Of a DNA stretch of 64,000 nucleotides, positions 475 to 13,810 are shown in pieces. The notes under the pieces are model-generated. The model saw only the letters and a list, made by a program, of their open reading frames with translations. It was not told the DNA's origin and searched no databases. Source of the DNA: an uncultured Gammaproteobacteria bacterium (GTDB lineage Bacteria > Pseudomonadota > Gammaproteobacteria > JABCZS01); the NCBI GenBank assembly GCA_963848305.1, contig CAWKDC010000001.1, positions 256,001-320,000 on the forward strand, read 5' to 3'. The translations under genes and the position numbers were made by a program. Position 1 is the stretch's first letter, and each line of letters begins with the position of its first letter.

Positions 475-527
475 GGACATTGCTATTTAGAGATGTCCTA
501 GGGTGGGCTAAGTAGAAATGTCCGCTT
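475..527 (-). mobile_element. Degenerate terminal repeat (probable IRR) of an IS1202/ISNCY-family IS
   Basis: Minus strand reads GGACATTTCTACTTAGC-CCACCCTA-GGACATCTCTAAATAGC. Two subterminal GGACAT(T/C)TCTA repeats are typical of this family's ends. The terminal TGT is not intact. Confidence 0.6.
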
Positions 528-761
528 TTGGGCATGCTATTGATCTCACCAATATCTTCAATTTCATTTTAATTTGGTTATATCGAAATTAGAATGAAAG
601 GATTGTATTCTTGAGGCTGAATATAATTCAATAAATTCATAAAGATAGCCTTATATGAACCAATTGACATTAATGTGTTAATCTGCTAAGATTATATGGT
701 GCCTCAATTATATTTTTAGGTTTGAGAGCAGAGTCATAGTTTTTTACGTCGGGAGGTAGCC

Positions 762-1215: not shown

Positions 1216-1858
1216 CTAGTTCACCGAATGCTGTCTCTTCTGAACACTCTTGCTTCTCTCACAATTCAACTCTGTTTTTTTCTCCAAAATGAATGCCATC
1301 ACATTGCCAAGGCGTTTATTATCAACCACTTCGCCCTGTTCGATTCGTTGCAGGCGATCGTGAAGAATAGAGTAGGGCAGCCTGCGTATCTAACTTCGAT
1401 ATAAACCAACAAGGTGCATTTAGGGCCACGCTTTTCAAACCAATGATGTTCAGAGCCATCAATTTGAATAAGTTCGCCGTAGCATTCACGCCGGTATCTG
1501 GGCTGATAGGCACGCTTGAGGCGCTGTGTGCGGGTCTTCCATAAACCAGCCTCAACCATCAGTTTTCGTACGGTTTCGGTACTTAAGGCAATTCTATGAA
1601 GCTCTAGGAGCTTCGCAGTAGTCAGGGTTGGCCAGAGTCGTAAAAATGCTCTTTGATGAGGCTCAGAGCATTTTGTTTAACCTCATCCGATACTCTATGA
1701 TTGGATCTTGGAGGTCAAGGCAACGGCCCCAGATTCCTTGTAGGAGGCGATTAGACATCGCATCTGTCTTGAGGTCACCCCGAGGGTTTCTGCAGCTTGT
1801 GTTTGATTTAAACCGTGGCTAACAACGCGTTCAATAACCTGAATTCGGTACTTCAATT
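1216..1858 (-). pseudogene. IS1202/ISNCY-family transposase remnant with internal deletions and frameshifts
   Basis: Minus-strand fragments: RIQVIERVVSHGLNQTQAAETLGVTSRQMR (HTH); TETVRKLMVEAGLW...GELIQIDGSEHHWFEKRGPKCTLLVYI (first DDE Asp). The sequence then jumps to the C-terminal IEVRYAG...LQRIEQGEVVDNKRLGNVM. Confidence 0.85.
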
Positions 1859-1860
1859 GT

Positions 1861-1888
1861 TGTTCGCATAATGTATATTATGTTAATA
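1861..1888 (+). other. dif site (XerC arm TGTTCGCATAA, spacer TGTATA, XerD arm TTATGTTAATA); also attL of the element
   Basis: Matches E. coli dif GGTGCGCATAA-TGTATA-TTATGTTAAAT except at 2 XerC-arm positions and the last 2 XerD-arm positions. Confidence 0.9.
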
Positions 1889-1971
1889 CACGCACCAGGC
1901 ATGTCTATGTCAACCATGTAATCAATGTTGATTAAGTACTTGATCCTTCATAACCAATCCTGATACTCTAT

Positions 1972-3207
1972 GTGATACGCACACCATGTCATTTATGTAA
2001 TATTGGCTTACAAGGAGTTAAAGCGTCAATGGAATTGGTTAAGATCAGATACCCCAATAATAGGATCTCATGGTCTGTTTTAAGCAATGATATTACCGTG
2101 GATCAGCTCAGAAATTGGATTATACATTTAGAAGAAATCAATCAGTCACCCAATACCATTCAGGCCTATGCTCGGCATATGGTTCGATTTGGGAATTATT
2201 TAGAAGCAAATGCCAAAACATTCAAAAAGATCTGCATTTCAGACTATGATCAGTTCCTTCAATGGCTTCCCTATGCGCTTTCAAATCCAGAGTTTCCAGG
2301 CAATGTCGTTTCGTTAAATCATCAACCAAAACGGCTTTCACCAGCACTGAAGAATCAAGTCCATTTGGCTGTGAAATCATTCTACAGATATTTGTCTGGA
2401 CAGCCTAATTTCGATTTTGACAGCGCTGAAGAATCAACCAGTTATGACAGCCCAGAAAGGTATAAACCATTTCTAGAGCATATTAATGCTCGTAGAACGA
2501 CAAGAACCAAGGATCGGTACCTACATGGTGATCCCGGTAAAGCTCAGAGAAGCGTCAGCAAACGACTAACCCCTGAAAACGTTTTAACGTTGATTAAGGC
2601 CTGCCACTTGATTCGAGATGCTTTCCTCGTGACACTTCTTTATAACACTGGCATGCGCATTGGAGAAGCTTTGGGGCTTAGACATACAGATATTGATCTG
2701 AAAGATGGCGTTATCTGGGTCATACCTCGGGCTGACAACGAAAACGGAGCTCGCGTCAAAGGCATGAAGACCCGAGCGATTCCCGTCATGAAGTACATAG
2801 TGGACATGTATGAGGATTACATCACAAGCGATGAGTATTTGGGCGCATTTGAATCTGGCACACAGTACGTGTTCTGCAATGTTCAAAAGTCACAAATTGG
2901 AAAAGCATTGTCCAAAAGCTATGGTGACAATCTCAAGAATTACCTCAAAAAAAGAACTGGCATCGAATTTACTTGGCACATGTTTAGGCATACACATGCC
3001 AGCGAAGCAATTGCAGATGGCTATAGCCTGCTTCAAGTATCTGATCGGTTAGGACATGCAAGCCCTCAAACAACAGTCAGTTTCTACAAACATTTGTTCA
3101 GCCATGAAATCAGAAAATGTCATTTAACTGGAGCAAAAAAGCTTGAAGAACGTTTAAGAGAGTTTAGTGCGACGCATACCAGCGAACGAGGTTTAAAATG
3201 GCTTTAA
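1972..3207 (+). CDS. Tyrosine recombinase, Tn554 TnpA-like (likely start ATG 2029)
   Basis: N-terminal SAM-like SPNTIQAYARH. Catalytic motifs LYNTGMRIGEALGL, HMFRHTHA and LGHASPQTTVSFY. Confidence 0.9.
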   Translation: MIRTPCHLCNIGLQGVKASMELVKIRYPNNRISWSVLSNDITVDQLRNWIIHLEEINQSPNTIQAYARHMVRFGNYLEANAKTFKKICISDYDQFLQWLPYALSNPEFPGNVVSLNHQPKRLSPALKNQVHLAVKSFYRYLSGQPNFDFDSAEESTSYDSPERYKPFLEHINARRTTRTKDRYLHGDPGKAQRSVSKRLTPENVLTLIKACHLIRDAFLVTLLYNTGMRIGEALGLRHTDIDLKDGVIWVIPRADNENGARVKGMKTRAIPVMKYIVDMYEDYITSDEYLGAFESGTQYVFCNVQKSQIGKALSKSYGDNLKNYLKKRTGIEFTWHMFRHTHASEAIADGYSLLQVSDRLGHASPQTTVSFYKHLFSHEIRKCHLTGAKKLEERLREFSATHTSERGLKWL

Positions 3208-5321
3208 CACTTGCATATATGACAGATGATTTAAATGAACAATACGAGGCTCAATTATCGTCTGCAATTTCGGTTATATCTCCGCTGCTTCTTAGCAATG
3301 ATGTTTGGGATCAGGAATTTGCAAATTCTGTACCGAAATTTGTTAATAAGCACATCGGTGCAAAAAGTCCTATTTCTTTCGCATCACTCCCCTCCTCCTT
3401 GAAGCTGGAGCTCAAATTATACTGGGCGAAATTGCTTTCAGACGATCGATGCAATTCGATGAGTGCAATTGAGAGAAGAAGACAATCAATGAGATGGTTC
3501 AACTCTGATGGAGCAAATATACTTTCCGATTTTAATGTCAAGACTTTATCTGATATTCCTCACCCAGAATTTCCGATAAATTGCATTGTCACATCTCGCT
3601 CAATCAAGAAGCACAATGATAGATTGTTGGAGCTGTATTCATGTTTTGAAGGGAATGGTGATCGACCTCCGCAAAAAATTTGTGTCGTCGATGATGCTAC
3701 AGGACGTGTCAATCAAAAAGAATATTTATCCACAAGGGTCACCATCATTGGGGATTTTCACAAGCAAGCTATTATAAATAGGGAACAGCTGCAACCAATG
3801 AATGGCCGGAACATTATTTTTATTAACGACCTTTACTCTGAAGAAAATGTACGATTCAAAGATAAACAACGGCAAACTGATACATATTTAAATTTTTTTC
3901 TATTCCCTCCTTGGCTGCGAGATGCCGCCAAAACGCACCTGCTTCAAAAGATATCCTTTGGCGAATTGGCACCAGGATCATTGCTTGGTTATTTTTCTAG
4001 GTTATTAAGTTTCAGAGATTTCATGCATGAAAGATTTGATATTCCACGCCCAAAACTTGTCACTGTTACTTTGATTGAAGACAATTATGTTGCCTGGGGC
4101 AATGAGAAAGGATTGGCGGGAAAGAACTGGTTTACCGACACCTTAGCGATGCTATCCACAGCGGGACGTATGTGGCCAAATGAGTGGCCTTCCCTATCAG
4201 TCTCAAATCGAGCGGCTAGAAAGATCAAAAAAACACATTACAAACAGGGGCTAGGTCGCATCGGTCAAAATCAAGAAGGTGCTGGACGCTCATATTCCCA
4301 GCGCATTGTGGATGAGCTTAATAGATCAATAAGTTCAGCACCAGATCCAATTCATGATATTTTTAGCATCATCATGGGCACTGGCATGAGAGCTGAAGAT
4401 GGGCATGCCCTCCTCTTTGATTGCCTTAAAGATGATCCAAATGATAATGATTTTATGCTTTTAACTTTTTGGCAAAATAAAGTAAGAAAATGGAATACAA
4501 AACCTTTATTAAAAAAAGATAAAGGCCATGCATATTTAATTGATTTAATTGCAGCCAGGCGAAAAAAGAATATTCATAAATACGGGAGAGAAACAAAATA
4601 CCTTTTTCCGTCCTTCACGGGGACGCAGGAGAACTTTCTAACGCCCGGATGGACAGTGCTTGAAATCAAGAAACGATGCATTGCGGATGACATCCGTGAT
4701 GAGACTAATAAACCTTTGAGCTTTTCATGGCATCCACTTCGACATACCAAGGGCACATCATTAGCCAAGGAAGGTCATGACGTAATGAGCATCATGATGG
4801 AGCTTGGACATGCCAGCCCTGATATGGCCGCTGTGTATGTTAACAATAGACTCGAATTAAAAAAACAAGCCCTCATGGAAAAAGGCAGTGGCAAATTCTT
4901 TACCATCGAAGGCAAAGTCGATACAAAAATTATGGAACTGATGGTAAGAAAGGAGCAGCTCAGCGCTACTAGAGTATGCGGTGGTGCTTGCTCTATGCCC
5001 AGTCAGCTTGGCGATTGGTGCGAGCACGCGAATGCCTGTTATACCTGTAAGCATTATCGGGCTGACGGAAAAGATATTGAGTTTTTTAAGCATGAGAAGC
5101 TTGCCATTACTGATTTAATTGAACAGCAAAAAATCGAAAGCAATGAGTTAAATGATGCCGGCCACAAACGTATGGCTGAAATACTGCAAAGACGCATGGC
5201 AAAAAACATGGACATCAACGCTTCGCTTGGCAACATTATTCAGGCAATAGAGACAACGGATCGATATCAAGGCGATAAACCAATGGCGAAGAAAATGAGT
5301 CTGGAGCAACCACATGATTAA
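3198..5321 (+). CDS. Large tyrosine recombinase, Tn554 TnpB-like
   Basis: GTGMRAED, HPLRHTKG and LGHASPDMAAVY. C-terminal Cys cluster GACSMP...CEHANACYTC followed by a coiled coil. Overlaps tnpA. Confidence 0.85.
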   Translation: MALTLAYMTDDLNEQYEAQLSSAISVISPLLLSNDVWDQEFANSVPKFVNKHIGAKSPISFASLPSSLKLELKLYWAKLLSDDRCNSMSAIERRRQSMRWFNSDGANILSDFNVKTLSDIPHPEFPINCIVTSRSIKKHNDRLLELYSCFEGNGDRPPQKICVVDDATGRVNQKEYLSTRVTIIGDFHKQAIINREQLQPMNGRNIIFINDLYSEENVRFKDKQRQTDTYLNFFLFPPWLRDAAKTHLLQKISFGELAPGSLLGYFSRLLSFRDFMHERFDIPRPKLVTVTLIEDNYVAWGNEKGLAGKNWFTDTLAMLSTAGRMWPNEWPSLSVSNRAARKIKKTHYKQGLGRIGQNQEGAGRSYSQRIVDELNRSISSAPDPIHDIFSIIMGTGMRAEDGHALLFDCLKDDPNDNDFMLLTFWQNKVRKWNTKPLLKKDKGHAYLIDLIAARRKKNIHKYGRETKYLFPSFTGTQENFLTPGWTVLEIKKRCIADDIRDETNKPLSFSWHPLRHTKGTSLAKEGHDVMSIMMELGHASPDMAAVYVNNRLELKKQALMEKGSGKFFTIEGKVDTKIMELMVRKEQLSATRVCGGACSMPSQLGDWCEHANACYTCKHYRADGKDIEFFKHEKLAITDLIEQQKIESNELNDAGHKRMAEILQRRMAKNMDINASLGNIIQAIETTDRYQGDKPMAKKMSLEQPHD

Positions 5322-5745
5322 CAAAACTGATGGCTTAAAAAAGGCAAGAGACCTTAGAAGCAAAGAGAAAAGAGAGGCTGTTGAAAAAGCTATCAGCGAA
5401 CTATCGCAACGAAATGAGGCAGTAACATTTCAATCCGTGGCAGCTATGGCCTGTGTCAGCAGACAGTATCTTTACAATAACTTTAAGGACTCAATCTCTG
5501 TTGAGCGCAATTCCTCTAGGAGTGTTGCTGATGTGATTGATGGCATCACGGTACCAGCGAGAACGCCAGATGAGCACAAGCATGTTGAAGCCCTGCTCCG
5601 CAACAAAATTGAAAAGCTTGAGAAGGAAATGAGCGCGCTGAGGCAGGAAAACGCACGAATGAAGCAATCATTGGAAAAAGAAAGGGGTAAAGCCGAACAT
5701 TTTAGGCAAAATTGGCTTAATTCAAAATCAAAAGATGTATTGTAA
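5314..5745 (+). CDS. TnpC-like (DUF6262-type) HTH/coiled-coil accessory protein
   Basis: KREAVEKAISEL...VTFQSVAAMACVSRQYLYN plus a C-terminal coiled coil. Third gene of the overlapping trio. Confidence 0.8.
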   Translation: MINKTDGLKKARDLRSKEKREAVEKAISELSQRNEAVTFQSVAAMACVSRQYLYNNFKDSISVERNSSRSVADVIDGITVPARTPDEHKHVEALLRNKIEKLEKEMSALRQENARMKQSLEKERGKAEHFRQNWLNSKSKDVL

Positions 5746-5758
5746 AAGGAAAGGTTGA

Positions 5759-7465
5759 ATGGGCATTATTCATGATTCGATAAAAGCACTAGATGTAATT
5801 GATTCTCAACTGGAAGAATATGAGATCCTAAATGTATTATCCAAAATCGATAAACATGCACTTACCCCTCAGGAATTGAAGCATGGTGAATACGAGTGGA
5901 TTGCTTTCAACATGCAGGATGGATTTAATTGGTCGAAATATGCAGGAAAAACATGGGGGACTTACTTTGGTCCTGTATGGGTATTTCCTGATGGAACAGT
6001 TTGGCCTGATAAGTCAATGATTACAGAAGAAGCTGTTTGCTATTGGGCAGCTCGGTTGGATGAGTGTGCTCATCCTGTTCTTAAAGCAAGATATGCTGGG
6101 CTCGTTTGGGATTTTAAAAACATCCTCAAGGAAAAACAGAATCTTCGTGAACTCCCGAAGATTATTATTAATAACTGTTTAGTGATTTCAAAAAATCACC
6201 TCCACAAATATCCTCATGAGGAGCTTATAAAGTTAAAGTGGGCTCTTGAGACCGCACTCTCTGTAAAGGATGAAAATATTGCCAAAGATATACTACGTGA
6301 GATGTTCAATCGCAATGGCTTTGGCGGAAATATTTCAATTATCGAGTTCTTATTGAAGAATAAAAAGGCACCGTTAATTCCTGAGCAAAAAAATCAACTG
6401 ATAACCGAGCTAAGAAGTTACAGCGAATCTCGTTGCTTCTCGACTGCCATGCAGTCAGCGGTAATTCTTGCCAATTACCACAGAAGCAAAGATAACGAAA
6501 AAGAGGCCAAGCAATCGATTCTTAAGTATATCAATAATGTTCTTGAAAATTCAACTGTCGAGCAACCTTTAAGATGGAAATTTATTCTTGAGGAGGCATT
6601 AAGTTTGACAAGAAAATATGGCCTGGGAGATGACATTGTGAATCAAGTGGAATGTGAGCTGAGATTGATTTGCGATAACATTTGGAAAGACATGAAAGTA
6701 ATTAAGGCTGAGGCTATTGTCGATTTCACTGAATTCGACCTTTTTATCGACTCTGTTCTTTCAAACAAAAAGAGCTCGATTCTTGATGTGCTAGCAATTA
6801 ATTTTATACCGAAAGCTCAAGATGGAAAGATGCTTTTTGATCAACTAAAAAATGACAATCCAATTTCCTATTCTATAAACAGAACCTTGTTTGGGCCTAA
6901 TAATATAACCTCGGCCGATCTGGATGAAAATGATAACGACCTTATTCATACCATAAAACAGCTGATCATAATAAATGGGGTTTTTTTGAAAAGATTTATA
7001 GAAAAGTGTCGCTTTTGTAAAAGAATAACCATGAGAACCGTCAAAAAACATTTTTCTAAATCACATTTATTCAAAGAAACTCATAATCGGCAGTTGTTTC
7101 ATGGTCTTAAGTCATATTTTAAAAAAGATTATATTACGTCAATATACATTCTTGTCCCTCAGCTCGAAAATGCAATAAGAGTGCTTTTAAATGAAAGTGG
7201 TTCGGCAGGTTTAGAACCAAATAAATCTGGCGGATTCGATGAGCGCGCCCTGGGAGCCTTGTTTAGCATGGATGGTTTAAAGTCAATTTTAGGCGAAAAC
7301 CTCATCACATATTTCAAGACGATTTATACACATAATGCAGGGATTTACTTAAGAAATTTAATATCTCACGGTAACGCATGTGATGCTGTATTTACTGCAG
7401 AACACGCAGATTTGGTTTTTCACTCACTCATAATACTGGCTGCGCTACCCTCCCTGAAAACATAA
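5759..7465 (+). CDS. DUF4209-type HEPN-domain protein (putative RNase/defence cargo)
   Basis: C-terminal SIYILVPQLENAIR...GIYLRNLISHG (Rx4H). N-terminal YW..R....HPVLKARYAGLVW motif seen in this family. Confidence 0.7.
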   Translation: MGIIHDSIKALDVIDSQLEEYEILNVLSKIDKHALTPQELKHGEYEWIAFNMQDGFNWSKYAGKTWGTYFGPVWVFPDGTVWPDKSMITEEAVCYWAARLDECAHPVLKARYAGLVWDFKNILKEKQNLRELPKIIINNCLVISKNHLHKYPHEELIKLKWALETALSVKDENIAKDILREMFNRNGFGGNISIIEFLLKNKKAPLIPEQKNQLITELRSYSESRCFSTAMQSAVILANYHRSKDNEKEAKQSILKYINNVLENSTVEQPLRWKFILEEALSLTRKYGLGDDIVNQVECELRLICDNIWKDMKVIKAEAIVDFTEFDLFIDSVLSNKKSSILDVLAINFIPKAQDGKMLFDQLKNDNPISYSINRTLFGPNNITSADLDENDNDLIHTIKQLIIINGVFLKRFIEKCRFCKRITMRTVKKHFSKSHLFKETHNRQLFHGLKSYFKKDYITSIYILVPQLENAIRVLLNESGSAGLEPNKSGGFDERALGALFSMDGLKSILGENLITYFKTIYTHNAGIYLRNLISHGNACDAVFTAEHADLVFHSLIILAALPSLKT

Positions 7466-7648
7466 CCGAAACGACAGCCCCCTACTGGTTGTCCAGAGGC
7501 TGTGAAAATTTCACTGCTAGTTAATGCCGTGAATATTTTATAAATATCCCTTGTTTCCACTTGAAAATTGAGCTCTCAATCACCATGTAAGCAGCTGATC
7601 GTTATTTTTGAAAAATATCCATAAATAATTCATTGGAGTCAGATTCTC

Positions 7649-7849
7649 ATGAGATTATACGATAATTATGATGCATTTAAAGCGAACCCATATGATGAAG
7701 ATGAGAAAAACAGAGTGATCAAGCACTGTGCCCATTATATGGAAAGGAATGCGACTATTCCATATGAGCTGCAGTTATGTTTTGATCTTTTGAAAGAAAG
7801 AGAACCTGAATATGTGAATTCATACTTATCACTAATGACATTAGCATAA
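7649..7849 (+). CDS. Small hypothetical protein
   Basis: 66-aa ORF with a GGAG RBS, ending just before the first right end. Confidence 0.45.
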   Translation: MRLYDNYDAFKANPYDEDEKNRVIKHCAHYMERNATIPYELQLCFDLLKEREPEYVNSYLSLMTLA

Positions 7850-7873
7850 CATAAGTCATTGATTAAAGGGATG

Positions 7874-7905
7874 TTTACACGATTTGGTGTGCATACATGT
7901 TAAAT
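7874..7905 (+). repeat. Right end/attR copy 1 (32 bp), preceded by IHF-like TAAGTCATTGATT
   Basis: tttacacgatttggtgtgcatacatgttaaat, identical to 8615-8646. Confidence 0.9.
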
Positions 7906-7920
7906 GGAGATAAAAAGCAG

Positions 7921-8538
7921 CTAGAGCCTCGGTGTTATCGCTTTATACCCACGCCAATCAAGTAAGTGAATTTGGTTTTTTTGCATCTCGTACATTTTAT
8001 ACACTGCGATTGCTTTCGGATCTTCTAAAATAATAACATTCTTGATGGCGCCATCTCCAGAGCGTAGGTTTTTTTCAGTTGATGGCGCATTGGTCACATC
8101 CCCAATTACAATTGTGTCAAAGTTAGCGCGATTTTTCACTTGTGCACAGCACACTTCGCAAGGTGTCAGTGTTGTGAACATTGTGGCTTGGCGAAAATCT
8201 ACAGGTCCCTGTCCTTTAAGCTTTGCGACTCTTCCCGCATCTCTCAATGCGCTTGTTTCACCATGCATTGTTGAGTCATTTTCTTGAATAAGCGTATTGT
8301 GTCCCTTACCGATAATTTGTCGCCCTTCACCAATGATCACTGCGCCAATCGGGCATCCTCCTTCTTTGAAAGATTTAATCGCAAGAAAGGTTGCTATTCG
8401 CATGAAGTCTTTATTTTGGAGTTTATTGAAAAATGCAGGCTCCACAACACGTGGCAGAAATTCCGTAGGGAGCAATGCAATGAGATTAAGCACGGCATCA
8501 TCAACGGGAGTGTATCGAGTTATATAAAGATGTTCCAT
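7921..8538 (-). CDS. Zn-dependent nucleoside/cytosine deaminase (CDA superfamily)
   Basis: EGGCPIGAVI, GHN, MHGETSAL (HxE) and TLTPCEVC (PCxxC). Confidence 0.85.
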   Translation of the reverse strand: MEHLYITRYTPVDDAVLNLIALLPTEFLPRVVEPAFFNKLQNKDFMRIATFLAIKSFKEGGCPIGAVIIGEGRQIIGKGHNTLIQENDSTMHGETSALRDAGRVAKLKGQGPVDFRQATMFTTLTPCEVCCAQVKNRANFDTIVIGDVTNAPSTEKNLRSGDGAIKNVIILEDPKAIAVYKMYEMQKNQIHLLDWRGYKAITPRL

Positions 8539-8614
8539 TCGTCTATTCTACCACCTTACTTGCCTCATCTCTTTGTTTACAGAAATAATGCATAACCTAT
8601 TGATTCAATCGTCA

Positions 8615-8646
8615 TTTACACGATTTGGTGTGCATACATGTTAAAT
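8615..8646 (+). repeat. Right end/attR copy 2 (32 bp), preceded by IHF-like TAACCTATTGATT
   Basis: Identical to 7874-7905. Confidence 0.9.
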
Positions 8647-8702
8647 TATGTTCATCATGGCTATTATATTGGTTTGTATGACATATGATGAGCCTAGAAT
8701 AT

Positions 8703-9194
8703 CTACTGGTTCAAATGACGGGATACCACATCTTTCGTAGCCGTATAATCAGCCTCTCTTGCACGTACTCGTTGTTCATACAACGACCATACGGTTAGAT
8801 AGAAGTTATTTGTAGGAACAACTACGTCAGCAGGGATTTTTCCACCATGCTGCAAAAGTATATTAAGCACCCCAGCGCGACCATATTCAATGGCTATTTC
8901 AACAGGAGTTTTTAAGCCGTGCATATCATCTTTCACGTCGAGACTAGCACCATTAGTGCATAAGTCTTCAACTAATTCTTTATCATCTAAAAGCACAGCA
9001 TAGGTAATTGCAAATTCCGCACAATATCTTTGACCCATATCAGTATTTGCGACATCCAGGTAATGATCCAAAGGCCAGTCTAAATCAATCCCCTCAAGTA
9101 ATGACCAATATTTTATCAGTGGCTCGAGTTTAGCGATGGATTCCTGAGTGAGATCTCTGTATGTTTTTACCATGTTGGAGCGTGGGTTTCTCAT
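8703..9194 (-). CDS. Ankyrin-repeat protein
   Basis: LVEDLCTNGASLDVKD...KTPVEIAIEYGRAGVLNILLQHGG. Confidence 0.75.
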   Translation of the reverse strand: MRNPRSNMVKTYRDLTQESIAKLEPLIKYWSLLEGIDLDWPLDHYLDVANTDMGQRYCAEFAITYAVLLDDKELVEDLCTNGASLDVKDDMHGLKTPVEIAIEYGRAGVLNILLQHGGKIPADVVVPTNNFYLTVWSLYEQRVRAREADYTATKDVVSRHLNQ

Positions 9195-9487
9195 ATCTAT
9201 AGCACCTCATCTATTACTTCAACTTATTCAAAATCAAGACACATTCTACCCCTTCACTTAAACGACTGTCAAGCCCAGGCGATGAAATGCCGAATATCGC
9301 TCCTGTAGGCTTGCCGAGTATTGTCGCTGGTGGCATGCTGGATATAGTGATGCGAGGGCTTAGTGCCTAGCTCATCGCGTGGTGGCTGTATCATTCCCTT
9401 GCTTTCAGGCATCCCCTTCCCCTTCCATTCATCCTTGCCATATGATATGATCCCGTTTTAATCACTGAGCGTAAGGGCTTCAGCGCC

Positions 9488-10219
9488 ATGACAGTTATAT
9501 TCAAAATTTTTGACAAAACCTTTCAAGCTTCATCGGGTGTATACGGAACTGCTCGTTTTAAAGACTCCGATGAATATAAAGAAGTTAAAAAAAATCACTT
9601 ATCTATCATGAATGACATGGCTGCTGACAGAATGCTAATCACGAACCACGTGTTTGGTCTTCATGTTGTCGACGCAGACCAAGTAGCGGACTTCGCAGAT
9701 GAGCCTGATGCAGATGCTGCTGTCACTACGCTTCCAGGCGTACTATTGACCATTCAAACCGCAGATTGTGTCCCTGTGATGCTAGTAAGTGATGATGACA
9801 AAGTAATCGGTGCTGTTCATTGCTCTTGGCACACTACCAAAAATGGTATTCTAGCCAATGTCGTTTCTTTAATGATAAAAAAAGGCGCACGAAGTATTCG
9901 CGCTATCATTGGGCCTGCTATCCATCAGAAGTCATATGAAGTCGATCAGGCGTTTTACGAATCCATCATCTCATCAGCGCCTAGAGCATCCTACCTCTTC
10001 ATTCCATCAAAAAGACAAGGCCATTATATGTTCGACTTACCAGGGTTCTGCAAGCTGAAATTAAGTCAATTGAATATTTCAGAGGTGCTTGATCAGTGTG
10101 AAGACACTTATCAATACACAGATAAATATTACAGTTATCGTCGCGATGCACATCAAGGAATTTTAGGTGAAAGAAAAAATATATTATCGACTATCATGAT
10201 AATGGAAGCAGGAGCCTAG
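9488..10219 (+). CDS. YfiH/PgeF (LACC1/FAMIN-like) purine nucleoside enzyme
   Basis: ADAAVT, TADCVPV, AVHCSW, IGPAI..SYEV and YYSYRR motifs. Confidence 0.85.
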   Translation: MTVIFKIFDKTFQASSGVYGTARFKDSDEYKEVKKNHLSIMNDMAADRMLITNHVFGLHVVDADQVADFADEPDADAAVTTLPGVLLTIQTADCVPVMLVSDDDKVIGAVHCSWHTTKNGILANVVSLMIKKGARSIRAIIGPAIHQKSYEVDQAFYESIISSAPRASYLFIPSKRQGHYMFDLPGFCKLKLSQLNISEVLDQCEDTYQYTDKYYSYRRDAHQGILGERKNILSTIMIMEAGA

Positions 10220-10223
10220 TTTC

Positions 10224-10583
10224 ATGAAATACACACGAATTTATGCAGGAGATGACAAGCATTCTCATTTCGAAGATAGCGATTTTGAGATGTTTGATGC
10301 CATTATCGGTAAAATTAGTGCAACGATTCCAACAAATTGTTTATATTTTGGGGAGATAACCGATACTGATGAAATCAGCTGGCACAACCCACCCGTGCCA
10401 CAATTTGTGATCATGCTGGAAGGTTCCATGGAAATAGAAATTGGCGATGGGACTAAAAAAATATTCAACACGGGTGATATTGTGTTTATTGAGGATACCA
10501 CTGGGCAAGGACATGTGACGCGAGCAGCAAGCTCAGGGAAGCGCAGGTATCTGGTTATTCCAGTCACAAATCAAAGCGAATAA
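10224..10583 (+). CDS. Cupin-domain protein
   Basis: WHNPPVPQFVIMLEG...GDIVFIEDTTGQGH. Confidence 0.8.
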   Translation: MKYTRIYAGDDKHSHFEDSDFEMFDAIIGKISATIPTNCLYFGEITDTDEISWHNPPVPQFVIMLEGSMEIEIGDGTKKIFNTGDIVFIEDTTGQGHVTRAASSGKRRYLVIPVTNQSE

Positions 10584-11163
10584 TGGGCAATATCCTGCCA
10601 GGAGTTAAGAGCGAGGGTTGCGTTCCTATTTGCTTGCCCCTGACTTTCTCATAAAATGGTGCAGCATTGGCATCTGCTTCCAATGTGAAAAATTTCAACC
10701 CCTTTCGCTTTGCTTCATTTTTAACTGCTTCGGCTAAAATCCGTCCATAGCCTTTACCTTGATGTTCTGGAGCAACAAATAAAAGTCCAGGTGATGTTTT
10801 TTCAGATTGAATGGGTGATCGCGCCCAGCAGGCAATCACATGTCCATCTACTTCAACAACAAATGTTATCCAGTCGCTAATCATTTCTTTTGTGACTGTA
10901 AGCTCATCTGTCCAGATTTTGAGCCAGCTATCAGGGTATCCCCAACTAGCTTTGGAGCGGAAACTTTCTTGCGTCAGGAATTCTGCTTCTTCCAGCCTGG
11001 CAGGTCTTACAGTAATAGGGTATTCAATGCTAGTCAATTTTAAACGGTTCCACGTCGGCTTTAATCTCGAGTAATGATAGCATAGCTCGGCGGATATACT
11101 GCCTCCCCCTATATAGGCAAGCTTGCCAGATAGGGACGGATAACTCAGATTATCGTAGATCAT
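10564..11163 (-). CDS. GNAT N-acetyltransferase (true start probably near 11037)
   Basis: RSKASWGY, LFVAPEHQGKGYGR (acetyl-CoA loop) and ADANAAPFYEK. Confidence 0.8.
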   Translation of the reverse strand: MIYDNLSYPSLSGKLAYIGGGSISAELCYHYSRLKPTWNRLKLTSIEYPITVRPARLEEAEFLTQESFRSKASWGYPDSWLKIWTDELTVTKEMISDWITFVVEVDGHVIACWARSPIQSEKTSPGLLFVAPEHQGKGYGRILAEAVKNEAKRKGLKFFTLEADANAAPFYEKVRGKQIGTQPSLLTPGRILPIIRFDL

Positions 11164-11291
11164 GCTGGTACCAACACTTAGTGGTCACAGACCAATATAC
11201 ATAACAAAATGTTTTCTTTAATCTTTTTATATCAAAAAAGCCAGCTTTAAAACTTGACAAGCCGCAGCGCATCAGAGGATAATGACAGAAT

Positions 11292-11957
11292 ATGTTAAAA
11301 CAGCAATTCGAGGTACCAGGCATGAACCCACTACTCCACCCAAACACAGAAGGCTCCATTCGCGTCTTTCATATTACAAAGACACCGATTGATAAAATCC
11401 TTCGAGAAGGTCTTAAAACCGTTGCTCAGTTAATGAATGAGGGGGAAATGGAACGCAGAAACCCCTCTAGTTATGGTCTATTGCGAGATCAATATACTCA
11501 CATTTATTTTCGACCTGTTGAAAATGCTGATAACTATATTACAGCGATTCGCGGGTGTACATGGATCGCCATAGATGTGCATCCAGATAGCATTGTATAT
11601 GATTCCGAATTGAGATTTGAGCGAAACCTGTCCTATTACGCATCACAAATTACTTTGCGTGACTATGTAGCGCCAGGATCGGCAACGGGGATTACGCGTG
11701 GAGGTGAGATACTGATAACGCAACCAGTACTATCCCCTGAGATGTTTAGCGATAACAGCCGGGATTATTGGCTTAGAAAAGAAAATGAGGCAAAAAAGGT
11801 GCAGGTTCCCGATCCTCAGGTGTCTTCCGGTGCAGGAATTGTGAATAATAGCTATACATCGGCCCCGTTTATCCCGCGCTCATCAGAATTGCTCTCAAAT
11901 GTAGCCGTTAGACAGAAACAGCAGTCTCAAAATAAACATTGCTGTACTTTTTTATAG
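11292..11957 (+). CDS. Hypothetical protein, possible ADP-ribosyltransferase fold with C-terminal CaaX-like motif
   Basis: VFHIT...ILREGLK, HIYF and GEILI. Ends CCTFL. Confidence 0.5.
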   Translation: MLKQQFEVPGMNPLLHPNTEGSIRVFHITKTPIDKILREGLKTVAQLMNEGEMERRNPSSYGLLRDQYTHIYFRPVENADNYITAIRGCTWIAIDVHPDSIVYDSELRFERNLSYYASQITLRDYVAPGSATGITRGGEILITQPVLSPEMFSDNSRDYWLRKENEAKKVQVPDPQVSSGAGIVNNSYTSAPFIPRSSELLSNVAVRQKQQSQNKHCCTFL

Positions 11958-12143
11958 TATCTAGCTGTGTACCGCCGGTAACATTCGGTACATTTGAGCC
12001 GTAATCAGCTGTAAACCCAAAAACAGTGGCGCTTTCATCCTTTCGTACCCCTACACTTAAAACCCACTCTTAATCGGCCTTGGCTCTGATAATTCCGAAA
12101 TACTAGGCTGTACAGCACCACGCATTAACGATATACTCACCTC

Positions 12144-13172
12144 ATGATCAGAAGTTTATACACATCAGTCAACAGAATACTCAATCCCTTCACCCTAAGA
12201 GACCTCCTCCTCCAACAGGCCGAATACTTTTCCATGTTCTTAAGCAGGGCCGTCGGTCTCAACTGTACTTTGAAGCCAATCAGCCTCACTCCATTCTCCG
12301 CACCCAGGCACTTCGTTCTGGAGTCAGATGGCGAGCCCATGTCTGTTGAGCACAAACACAAAATCTTAGAATGGGGGCTTGAACACCATCCGAGCTGGTT
12401 TTGCCGATGGTGGAGAGATGAAGCATTTGAAGGAGATATGATCGTCTTAAATAAGGACGGTGATTTTTGTATTAACTCGCACGATCTGCTTAGATTGATT
12501 GTCGCATTAGACCCTTTCCTGGCCAATTCACTTAAAAATGTCGAAACCATGTTGAATCAGCGGTACAGCAAGACTCTGTCCCTTAAAATTCATCCCACCG
12601 ATTGGTCCATGGATCTTTATATCAATGACGAGACCTTAACTTCTGCTGAATTGCATGAATTTAGCGAAACATTACAAAACGATGTGTATAGAAAAACAGG
12701 CCGTCATATTAGCCTTTCATCCGGCTGGTCATTTACACGCGCTCCTGTGAGGGTCGTGCCATATCACGCTAAAATAGTCTCTGCAGATTCGTCTAGTCAA
12801 GACATGAGTGGTTCTACTACAATCGAAGAGAGGTTCAAACGAAAATTCCTCTGTCAATCTGAAGCAATTAAGTGTTCAGGCATACGGCTTTCTGTCAATT
12901 TCGATCTTCCTCCACTTTTTGACTTTTTAGACCTCAAATGCCCGAGCTATTTCCCATCAAGTCAAACACATATTCCGCCTGTTGAGCTCAGCATTGATCC
13001 CCACCCGGTTTTATTGTTGACGAAATGGCGGTTTGTGGGCATTAATATCAATGGAAATTGGTTTGGCGCGTCACAACAAGAGAAGGATTTCAGTGAAAAA
13101 TCCTGGGAGGAGGTCGCAAAACGAATGCTAACCCAACCAGAGGATAAAAGAAAAGCGCTGACTTATTTTTGA
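12144..13172 (+). CDS. Hypothetical protein
   Basis: 342-aa ORF with no recognised motif. Confidence 0.55.
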   Translation: MIRSLYTSVNRILNPFTLRDLLLQQAEYFSMFLSRAVGLNCTLKPISLTPFSAPRHFVLESDGEPMSVEHKHKILEWGLEHHPSWFCRWWRDEAFEGDMIVLNKDGDFCINSHDLLRLIVALDPFLANSLKNVETMLNQRYSKTLSLKIHPTDWSMDLYINDETLTSAELHEFSETLQNDVYRKTGRHISLSSGWSFTRAPVRVVPYHAKIVSADSSSQDMSGSTTIEERFKRKFLCQSEAIKCSGIRLSVNFDLPPLFDFLDLKCPSYFPSSQTHIPPVELSIDPHPVLLLTKWRFVGININGNWFGASQQEKDFSEKSWEEVAKRMLTQPEDKRKALTYF

Positions 13173-13265
13173 GATATCTTTCCACGTCTTTACATGGCGA
13201 GCACGCCGGACAAACATGTCCCGGACTCGCATCCGGGATTGCTCGGAGTACATCGCGTATTTGCC

Positions 13266-13421
13266 TTTAGACCCTCCCTTTTTAGTACCAACTTAAATTA
13301 GAGGTCTCCGGAGTGGTCAAACGGTATTGAACGGGTGTCATGCAGTTTAAAGCCTGATGTGGCCGTTCTTCGTTGTACTCTTTAATCCATGCTTCTGTTA
13401 TCTCTTTTCACTTTCAGACTA
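13266..13421 (-). mobile_element. IS3-family remnant (transposase 3' end plus degenerate IRR)
   Basis: Minus strand encodes EITEAWIKEYNEERPHQALNCMTPVQY...SWY*, then TGGTACTAAAAAGGGAGGGTCTAAA. Confidence 0.75.
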
Positions 13422-13715
13422 TTCTTCGCAATAATTCTCACCGCCGATCAATGGGATTAATCTACAAAGTACTTCGTCAATAATATGTTCATCTGCATGA
13501 ATGCTTGAAGGAGTCATATTTTTGAGCAGTTCTTTTTCTGAAAAATGAAGTCTTTTTTTAGGCCAAGGCTTAACCTTTTTCACTGTAAACACATCTTCTG
13601 TGACATCCACGATAACTTTCGTTCCTTCAGTAAAATGCGGGATATCTCGCATTATGCCGGATACTCTGAGGGCTAATCCATTGCCCCATTTTTGTATACT
13701 TGCTTCTGTCTTCAC
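13419..13715 (-). CDS. mazE: AbrB/MazE antitoxin, apparently fused to the C-terminal tail of a deleted MazF
   Basis: IQKWGNGLALRV AbrB motif. The tail IIDEVLCRLIPLIG resembles a MazF C-terminal helix. Confidence 0.75.
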   Translation of the reverse strand: MKTEASIQKWGNGLALRVSGIMRDIPHFTEGTKVIVDVTEDVFTVKKVKPWPKKRLHFSEKELLKNMTPSSIHADEHIIDEVLCRLIPLIGGENYCEE

Positions 13716-13810
13716 GATAAGTTACCTCTAAAATAATCTTAACCTGAAAAGCACATACTATGTATCAACATCTGTCAAGCACTTTGTTCAATCAGCTAAA
13801 ATGACACGAT

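Follow-up and report, generated by a model that had tools for sequence, protein, structure and literature searches.

A candidate Xer-site-specific member of the Tn554 family inserted in the XerD arm of a gammaproteobacterial dif site

The subject of this work is an intact element of 6,010 base pairs (bp) that sits in the dif site of an uncultured gammaproteobacterium and carries the gene trio tnpA-tnpB-tnpC. It lies in a stretch of 64,000 nucleotides (nt), here called the window, which corresponds to positions 256001-320000 of contig C1 of the source genome (G000; 1.89 Mb, 4 contigs, 92% complete). The element occupies window positions 1887-7896 and is made of a left end, the three tnp genes, a candidate defence gene, and a right end. 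The left end (1887-2028, + strand) starts with TA and opens with the terminal arm TACACGCACC. Next come tnpA (2029-3207, +), encoding a Xer-like "simple" tyrosine recombinase of 392 amino acids (aa), tnpB (3198-5321, +), encoding a second tyrosine recombinase of 707 aa, and tnpC (5314-5745, +), whose 143-aa product belongs to DUF6262. The cargo is a 568-aa DUF4209 protein (5759-7465, +) of the PADLOC candidate defence family PDC-S39 (E value 1e-25), to which a 66-aa open reading frame (ORF; 7649-7849, +) without a family match can be added if it is a real gene. Right end 1 (7850-7896, +) closes the element with the arm GGTGTGCATAC.

To the left of the element, direct reading finds the XerC-binding arm of dif, TGTTCGCATAA (1861-1871, +), the dif central region TGTATA (1872-1877, +), and the first 9 nt of the XerD arm, TTATGTTAA (1878-1886, +), which include the left copy of a 7-nt core, ATGTTAA (1880-1886, +). 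TACACGCACC begins directly afterwards, at 1887, so that the left junction (attL) reads TTATGTTAATA. Is this the dif of the chromosome? The dif 20-mer has one exact match in the genome, with another match elsewhere that has three mismatches, and it lies at 257,863 of contig C1, where the cumulative GC skew has its maximum (250-260 kb). Because the site is the sole exact match and coincides with the skew maximum, the interrupted site is the terminus dif of the chromosome. In profile searches, the host encodes XerD (359 bits, over the cut-off) and a XerC-like gene that scores 310 bits, under the cut-off of 335 bits. Among the eight related genomes in which a dif core of 24-25 nt could be matched, seven have a dif that ends in ATGTTAAAT and the remaining one ends in ATGTTAAGT (AAGT), whereas the window site ends in ATGTTAATA. 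The dif is therefore interrupted, as an earlier annotation made from the letters alone (hereafter, the sequence-only reading) had claimed when it described a site that is canonical up to ATGTTAA and then switches.

On the other side, right end 1 is followed by a second core copy, ATGTTAA, and by AT, the rest of the XerD arm (7897-7905, +). What comes next is a separate unit of 741 bp, whose body (7906-8590, − strand) holds a 205-aa cytidine/dCMP-deaminase-family gene (7921-8538, −), and which is bounded by a second right end (8591-8637, +). A third core copy (8638-8644, +) and AT (8645-8646) complete the arrangement, and the chromosomal flank starts at 8647. The string GGTGTGCATAC-ATGTTAA-AT is thus present at 7886-7905 and 8627-8646, within a 56-nt direct repeat (7850-7905 and 8591-8646) with a spacing of 741, 84% identity, and the final 32 nt identical. 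With up to three mismatches allowed, the right-end 20-mer is found in two places only in the 1.89-Mb genome, and a reversed control gives no match.

These ends agree in most respects with what had been read from the sequence at the outset. ATGTTAA-AT does recur at 7897 and 8638, each time after GGTGTGCATAC, and the imperfect inverted pair around the core is correct, since GGTGTGCATA matches the reverse complement of TACACGCACC at 7 of 10 positions. When the left TTATGTTAA is joined to the right AT, the result is TTATGTTAAAT, the ending of the dif sites in seven of the eight matched relatives. The proposal that either right core could be used for this joining holds for the restored XerD arm but not for the choice of ends: the core at 8638 is no alternative end of the 6-kb element, and it closes the deaminase unit instead. 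Inside the left end there is a second arm-like copy at about 1976-1985, ∼90 nt from the edge of the element, together with five YRTGTHHH motifs, while the right end has two such motifs in inverted orientation; the motifs and the second arm-like copy are likely to be accessory binding sites.

As for the family to which the element belongs, the tnpA, tnpB, and tnpC genes are adjacent, in that order, at one end, and the lengths of their products (392, 707, and 143 aa) parallel those encoded at locus L209 (361, 637, and 121 aa). All three proteins have a counterpart encoded by a tnpA-tnpB-tnpC trio of an Enterococcus faecium plasmid, in a matching gene order: TnpA shares 34% identity with the first product (E 1e-53), TnpB 22% with the second along 335 aa (E 3e-13; the HxxR motif, the Tyr, and the Cys cluster are aligned), and TnpC 31% with the third (E 1e-12). 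TnpC also matches DUF6262 (PF19776, E 1.6e-10), the annotation given to the tnpC of Tn558-type elements. TnpA and DUF6262 proteins of the E. faecium type adjoin fexA and cfr (the latter inserted) on a plasmid of Staphylococcus aureus, an arrangement that we take to be Tn558-type, the name itself being absent from the record.

The catalytic residues of TnpA are invariant across an alignment of 37 homologues. In TnpB, R398, H512, R515, H538, and Y547 are invariant in 25 homologues, and so is a four-cysteine cluster (C598, C608, C614, and C617). The structure model of TnpB has a mean pLDDT (predicted local distance difference test) of 78.8, and fold matches to XerH, IntI, XerA, lambda Int, and Cre cover ∼330 of its residues; beyond this recombinase fold, the model displays an N-terminal region of ∼230 aa, a poorly modelled loop with the Cys cluster, and long C-terminal helices. 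A search of the Protein Data Bank gave no sequence match for TnpB. The closest solved relatives of TnpA are Xer proteins, in agreement with Smyshlyaev et al. 2021 (PMC8138268), who assign the TnpA group of Tn554 to the Xer-related "simple" recombinases. Against the integron-integrase model, TnpA scores 49 bits, the cut-off being 265. By gene content and homology, the window element is a member of the Tn554 family that has a different target, and the early description of a Tn554-like TnpABC element is borne out for all three Tnp proteins, each being homologous to its counterpart in the Tn558/Tn554-type trio.

Does the association with dif extend beyond this one copy? TnpA homologues were gathered regardless of context, giving 326 proteins, 80 species-genome loci, 80 metagenome loci, and 2 plasmid loci. 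The motif [C/G]ATAA-N6-TTATGNNA was sought 60-220 nt upstream of tnpA, and only loci with 175 nt or more upstream and a matching N-terminus were considered assessable. When TnpA is at least 50% identical, the motif is present in 14 of 17 loci from genomes, in 46 of 49 from metagenomes, and in one of the two plasmid loci. Between 42 and 50% identity, it is found in none of 6 genome loci and in 9 of 13 metagenome loci (9/19 overall), and below 42%, the range of the cyanobacteria and actinobacteria, in 0 of 43 genome loci, with no metagenome locus assessable. All of the matches end 114-129 nt before tnpA, and the Xer motif has 96 matches in the 3.68 Mb scanned on both strands, junction matches included. 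Because of these comparative locus counts, a chance association with dif is excluded; the dif half-site expected by the sequence-only reading at a fixed distance upstream of tnpA is present in most of the loci that are at least 50% identical. The seven misses in this class are near-matches on inspection: for example, L022 has CAGAA and L117 has TGTAA instead of CATAA, and the others are discussed below.

A looser, feature-requiring filter was used to count distinct junctions, and it returned 71 of them. Their spacers are diverse (TGTATA in 18, TATATA in 7, TAATGA in 5, and many others), and the XerD arm is TTATGTTAA in 50, TTATGTAAA in 12, and one of five rarer forms in the rest. The first two bases of the element are TA in 71/71, and the left flanks vary right up to the XerC arm. 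The only conserved parts of the targets are the end of the XerC arm (ATAA), TT, the core, and AAT. The target is any XerC/D-type site, on a chromosome (dif) or a plasmid, whatever the 6-bp spacer. A separate observation on these sites is a motif of ∼25 nt, GACATYTCTA..GCGCYTACA, which many Xer sites of sphingomonads and other alphaproteobacteria have ∼10 nt upstream of their XerC arm (L141, L144-146, L156-159, L161-162, L175-182, and L211 at about 1440-1470), one of them unoccupied.

How often did this targeting arise? A FastTree tree was built from 74 TnpA rows picked from about 165 loci, after dropping truncated and near-duplicate rows, and we assigned the target labels. A single clade (support 100, stem length 1.19) of 54 rows contains all 50 Xer-site rows; its other four rows have noncanonical junctions (L040, L042, L167, and L173), and the cyanobacterial, actinobacterial, and Tn558-type rows lie outside. 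With the Xer-site rows grouped in one clade, Xer targeting looks like a single innovation within the Tn554 family. The elements that share it form a large proteobacterial clade, inserted at one and the same base of Xer sites.

The far ends tell a similar story. The right-end pattern GGTNNN[C/G/T]ATA[C/T]-ATGNNAN was found in 29 loci, and the two bases after the core are AT in 25, TT in 3, and AC in 1. Joining left and right therefore restores TTATGTTAAAT in the homologues as well, and the core predicted at their far end is there, as ATGTTAA or ATGTAAA followed by AT, in these 25 of 29 loci. The elements range from about 4.08 kb, in sphingomonads that have tnpABC only, up to 8.6 and 10.5 kb (L024 and L025). 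In three loci (L157, L140, and L155), the right flank has an inverted XerC-arm-like sequence, e.g., ATTATCAAAT, directly after the restored XerD arm, which suggests back-to-back Xer sites, as in module-bearing plasmids.

Occupied and empty sites could be compared in five host genomes by searching for the Xer pattern ATAA-N6-TTATGTWAA. The complete Alcanivorax genome has a single match, and it is occupied. A metagenome-assembled genome of Novosphingobium has two, one on the chromosome and one on a 126-kb contig, both occupied, and in a Novosphingobium subterraneum isolate (G410) 4/4 sites, with four different spacers and flanks, are each followed by an identical left end. The Halomonas genome and the Sphingomonas genome have one occupied and one intact site apiece, the latter ending in AAAT. 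In another Novosphingobium species, the empty site reads GATTGATAA-TAATCC-TTATGTTAAAT, and the sequence after it is 88% identical to the right-end flank in N. subterraneum. In keeping with the sequence-only reading, the unoccupied sites end in AAAT.

Another intriguing question is where the strands are exchanged. ATGTTAA is the only sequence common to both window junctions; to its left, there is TGTATATT in attL versus GTGCATAC in the right junction (attR), and attR has no spacer. Since the bases to the left of ATGTTAA differ, the exchange cannot be in the spacer, where XerC and XerD cut. The crossover instead lies within the XerD arm, which argues against catalysis by XerCD, and a 6-bp crossover region can be proposed at 1880-1885 (+). 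It had been suggested at the start that the crossover falls in the XerD arm and changes only its outer 2 bp; the shared ATGTTAA does lie in this arm, and AT becomes TA in attL.

The cores themselves carry further information. Both junctions are available for 23 distinct elements, and in 5 of these (L030, L036, L143, L145 with its duplicate L146, and L155), the left and right cores differ at position 5, with ATGTTAA at one side and ATGTAAA at the other, in either order, and the cores of L046 are ATGGAA and ATGCGA. According to the older literature, the junction cores of Tn554 may differ, and the donor core is carried over. By analogy, this heterology would be the trace of a heterology-tolerant tyrosine recombinase that carries the donor core into a new target. 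In the sister clade, with TnpA at 43-48% identity, whole-element contigs begin with TTATGGAA-TTAGCTCTAGG and end with CTAGAGCTAA-ATGGAA, so that the joined ends consist of 11 nt, ATGGAA, and 11 nt, with perfectly inverted arms. Read in the same manner, the joined ends of the window element are GGTGTGCATAC, ATGTTA, and ATACACGCACC, an 11-6-11 layout of 28 bp like that of a Xer site, whose arms match at 7/11. On this layout, the exchange would be placed at positions 3-8 of the XerD arm.

Taken together, it is quite probable, in our judgment, that the window element is a Xer-site-specific transposon of the Tn554 family that acts through its own recombinases, as the sequence-only reading had proposed. 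Such an element would be excised as a circle, in which the joined ends form the Xer-like 11-6-11 core site. With the help of TnpC, strand exchange with the target would then be carried out by TnpA and TnpB, both with complete catalytic residues; it would span the 6-7 bp ATGTTA(A), at positions 3-8(9) of the XerD arm. A heterologous core would be tolerated as in Tn554, one junction keeping the donor core. The insertion would rebuild a 28-bp Xer site on the left, with only the two outermost bases of the XerD arm altered (AT to TA), and the right junction would retain just 9 nt of this arm. The host probably keeps dimer resolution after the insertion, because the rebuilt left site differs in those two bases only.

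Some data sit uneasily with a transposon of this type. L118 has a full Xer site 331 nt upstream of tnpA. L029 and L122, which represent one junction, have the spacer and the XerD arm and lack the XerC arm, and neither a XerC arm nor a second site was found within 10 kb upstream in L029. In L028 and L111, both from Halioglobus, the usual place by tnpA is taken by a XerC arm, 6 nt, and a 9-mer that is not a XerD arm. As for the window itself, its genome may have a second dif in the missing 8%, and the genome comparison provided no isogenic empty site, the flanks not being syntenic with those of same-genus genomes. The assembled contigs of four sequencing runs (X1-X4), compared with window 1500-9000, showed neither the circle junction of the 6-kb element nor a restored dif, which has no bearing on absence, given their patchy cover (13-23 of 30 bins); no direct sign of activity of the window copy was seen. 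The tree, for its part, was inferred with FastTree from selected rows labelled by the authors. Finally, most of the target sequence that would have to serve as arms for the Tnp proteins is variable, and recognition may thus depend on more than the DNA sequence.

With regard to L028 and L111, a complete Xer site, a left-end-like sequence, and a gene for a small tyrosine recombinase of 257 aa are present ∼1.1 kb upstream. In both loci (L111 10903-11890, on a Halioglobus pacificus plasmid), the tnpABC element is preceded by what looks like a composite or tandem arrangement.

Could the host recombinases be the ones that do the work? In that case, the element would behave like the integrative mobile elements that exploit Xer (IMEXs), with XerC and XerD catalysing the integration at dif and tnpABC serving another purpose or assisting only. 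Its location at dif, an attL that is an almost intact Xer site, and the Xer kinship of TnpA are all compatible with this idea, as is the end arm GGTGTGCATAC, which resembles a XerC arm of the consensus type GGTGCGCATAA. Against it are the core shared within the XerD arm, the unlike bases to its left, the missing spacer of attR, and the presence of two element-encoded recombinases with intact catalytic residues. The spacers also vary widely among sites that hold the same element (L125-127 and the four in G410), and Xer exchange requires spacer homology, as is established for IMEXs (PMC5357621). Host-driven integration is, on this balance, very improbable. Improbable to the point of being negligible is the view that the dif-like sequence belongs to the element, as its own resolution site, or that the association is due to chance or to a permissive terminus. 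Xer sites do travel with some mobile modules, for instance the dif modules of Acinetobacter (PMC12907356), but the left flanks differ as far as the XerC arm in the 71 distinct junctions, the occupied site is the sole one of its kind in the window genome and in the complete Alcanivorax genome, unoccupied sites of identical architecture exist, and the window site is at the skew maximum.

More serious is the possibility that TnpA and TnpB catalyse the reaction while the choice of target needs bound XerC and XerD as noncatalytic partners, so that the Xer-dif nucleoprotein is recognized rather than DNA. This would account for would-be Tnp-binding arms made of a variable spacer and a random flank, and the IS1202-family elements that target Xer sites are likewise judged not to recognize sequence alone (bioRxiv 10.1101/2022.12.17.520857). 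The end arms, moreover, are similar to the XerC arm of the host in gammaproteobacteria (GCATA) and in sphingomonads (GATA), but these two clades amount to one evolutionary contrast, and the resemblance fails in a third clade. Bound XerD would also cover the bases to be cut, and the junction of L029/L122 does without a XerC arm, just as the proximal junction of L028/L111 does without a XerD arm. We regard this dependence on bound XerC and XerD as rather unlikely. The co-variation between element arm and host XerC arm was also considered as a line of evidence in its own right and was set aside, the contrasts being too few to count.

How does the element compare with known systems? The Tn554 family also has the tnpA-tnpB-tnpC trio at the left end, with all three proteins homologous and TnpC belonging to DUF6262, and its insertion is likewise site- and orientation-specific, with a short junction core that may differ between left and right. 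Tn554 proper, however, targets att554 in radC, whereas the window element targets the XerD arm of XerC/D sites, and there may be a further difference in the ends: Tn554 is described as being without terminal inverted repeats, and the Xer-targeting elements have inverted arms that range from imperfect (7/10 to 8/11; 7/10 in the window) to perfect over 11 nt in the sister clade. The Tn554 family of staphylococci and enterococci carries resistance genes, while the Xer-targeting elements occur in Proteobacteria with candidate antiphage defence cargo, and the TnpA identity between them is only about 34%. IMEXs such as CTXphi, VGJphi, and TLCphi resemble the window element in that dif is their integration site and a usable dif-like site remains afterwards (PMC5357621). 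They differ in having no recombinase and in crossing over in the central region by means of XerC or XerD, compared with two recombinases and a XerD-arm crossover in the window element.

Insertion sequences of the IS1202 family use a DDE-type transposase, and the family annotation of the ORFs found no ISNCY/IS1202-type transposase gene within the window element. What the two have in common is the targeting of XerC/D sites, chromosomal and plasmid, in one orientation and with any spacer, as documented for the ISAjo2/ISAba32 subgroup in PMC10132070 and bioRxiv 10.1101/2022.12.17.520857; these insertions are reported to lie 5 bp outside the XerC arm of dif and pdif sites. The window element, in contrast, lies inside the XerD arm. 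Next to it, and outside its borders, there is a frameshifted and truncated transposase gene of the ISNCY family (1299-1877, −; NF033594, transpos_ISNCY_2): of the 368 positions of this model, 1-45 align to 1695-1877 (E 8e-8) and 75-153 to 1299-1676, in another frame (E 1e-29). The N-terminus of this remnant is ∼20-25 nt from the XerC arm, and the window dif may therefore have two different Xer-targeting elements at its sides.

A search of the literature turned up no report that places a Tn554-like or TnpABC element within a Xer site; most subscription journals were outside its coverage, and a prior description is possible. The sequence-only reading, too, had been aware of no described family that targets dif in this way.

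The cargo of the Xer-targeting elements is also of interest. L024 carries a HamB-type helicase (E 1.6e-39) with a 260-aa partner, L025 a Ppl-like ATPase (E 1e-30), and L112 genes for a helicase, an ATPase, and a methyltransferase. Because of these genes and of the PDC-S39 protein in the window, candidate phage-defence genes are a common load.

All of the above concerns complete elements, and the deaminase unit next to the one in the window belongs to another category, that of units with a right end only. In a genome of the same genus (G002, 95% complete), an intact dif (...AAAT) is followed by four units of 848, 803, about 2,063, and 1,185 bp, in an array assembled from two contigs that overlap by 64 nt. 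A genome of another genus (G004, 97% complete) has a dif followed by one unit of 775 bp. Genome searches gave neither a TnpA nor a TnpB match in G002 and no TnpA match in G004. The G002 units begin after ATGTTAA-AT and end with a conserved right end of ∼50 nt plus GGTGYGCATAC-ATGTTAA, and the seven right ends align at a mean column identity of 75%. The genes encode MazF with its antitoxin, two PIN and MazE pairs, a DinB-family protein, Phd/YefM with YoeB, and, in the window, the deaminase; all are co-oriented, on the strand opposite to tnpABC. A consensus scan for promoters returned 25 sites versus 19.8 ± 4.4 in shuffled sequences; on the strand that carries the cassette genes, the right ends had none. 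The units contain no left end, tnp remnant, or second type of site. They are not tandem copies of full elements, because these would give ATGTTAA-TA and a left end. A sequence-only model made from the seven right ends was searched in all 12 genomes of the order and revealed no further arrays, the output being the 7 known sites and three weak partial matches (E 7e-4 to 8e-3); among the loci of other hosts, none has two right ends, though many of them end soon after the first.

These units have parallels elsewhere. The dif modules of Acinetobacter (PMC12907356) are also small, often encode toxin-antitoxin systems, and are bounded by Xer-like sites, but these are complete 28-bp sites and the process is ascribed to XerCD, whereas the sites here are truncated to 20 nt. 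The boundaries are built in another way too: each consists of an arm and 9 nt of the XerD arm, they are in direct orientation, and they follow a conserved right end of ∼50 nt that is shared with the tnpABC element. Integron arrays and clusters of attC sites lacking integron-integrases (CALINs) share with the present units the small size, the common orientation, the single recombination site per unit, the abundance of toxin-antitoxin genes, and the presence or absence of a recombinase gene. The difference is that integrons have IntI, and the right-end-only arrays are without it and sit at dif, with mobility that is putative.

How, then, did these units arise? On the simplest reading, a circle with a right end would have recombined with dif, or two right ends with each other, in either case at the same core, in an integron-like mobilization in trans. 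The opposite view is that the window deaminase unit, the four units of G002, and that of G004 are inert remnants of full elements that decayed or were partly deleted. The lack of a tnpA homologue in G002 and G004, of left-end or tnp remnants, and of a second type of site is listed in its favor, together with the lack of more arrays in the 12 genomes and a homologue of the first G002 unit at window 13419-13791 that has no right end. However, the units start exactly after ATGTTAA-AT and end with the conserved right end and ATGTTAA, and random deletions would not stop at the core each time; the unit genes, furthermore, all share one direction. Decay is given slightly less than an even chance, and between mobile cassettes and decay the balance is roughly even. 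A broader proposal, in which TnpA and TnpB run a dif-anchored, integron-like capture that moves, besides the full transposon, right-end-only cassettes (toxin-antitoxin pairs, a DinB-family gene, a deaminase) in and out of the XerD arm, with arrays that outlast the recombinases and with recognition of the XerCD-dif nucleoprotein, is tentative and on the whole doubtful. One contig of 597 nt from run X4 joins the end of the window unit to its start (8614 to 7874, 741 back), as a circular cassette would. The join crosses a 32-nt exact repeat, may be an artefact of the assembly graph or a tandem duplication, and was not counted.

The homologue at window 13419-13791 is 85-90% identical at the nucleotide level to the antitoxin part of the first G002 unit after dif, and the MazF gene is missing. 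The 4.8 kb from 8647 to 13418, with ankyrin, laccase-like, cupin, and GNAT genes, has no counterpart beside the G002 dif.

What would such an element mean for the biology of Xer sites? These sites occur once per replicon in most bacteria and are hard to lose; for mobile DNA they are therefore an ideal "safe harbour". Two strategies for using them have been described, namely the borrowing of XerCD by IMEXs and the insertion of DDE insertion sequences beside the XerC arm. A widespread clade of tyrosine-recombinase transposons that cut in the XerD arm and rebuild an almost intact site would, if the proposal is true, add a third. It would also link the Tn554 family, known mainly for drug resistance in Gram-positive cocci, to Proteobacteria with mostly candidate defence cargo. 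As often happens, new questions follow: (i) How do two recombinases find a site with variable arms? (ii) How does the altered site perform in dimer resolution? (iii) Are cassettes mobilized in trans? On the practical side, elements of this kind could be used to insert DNA at dif in a single copy and a defined orientation, across many species.

A few other observations were made along the way. In run X4, a wetland metagenome, a contig has 28 nt of differing sequence to the left of 1867 and follows the window from there on; it may show the same left end at another Xer site. The first ∼140 kb of contig C1 (G000:C1:1-140000) have a G+C content of about 0.59, versus about 0.45 elsewhere, and a flat GC skew, and could be a large foreign island or a chimera of assembly or binning. 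A repeat of ∼50 nt at window 482-532 is present twice in contig C61 of G002 and four times near the dif of G004, with 81-90% identity, and may be a small dispersed repeat of these genomes. In G002 (L193 3327-4136), a gene for an AadA-like nucleotidyltransferase (PF13427, E 6e-30) ends at the XerC side of the intact dif.

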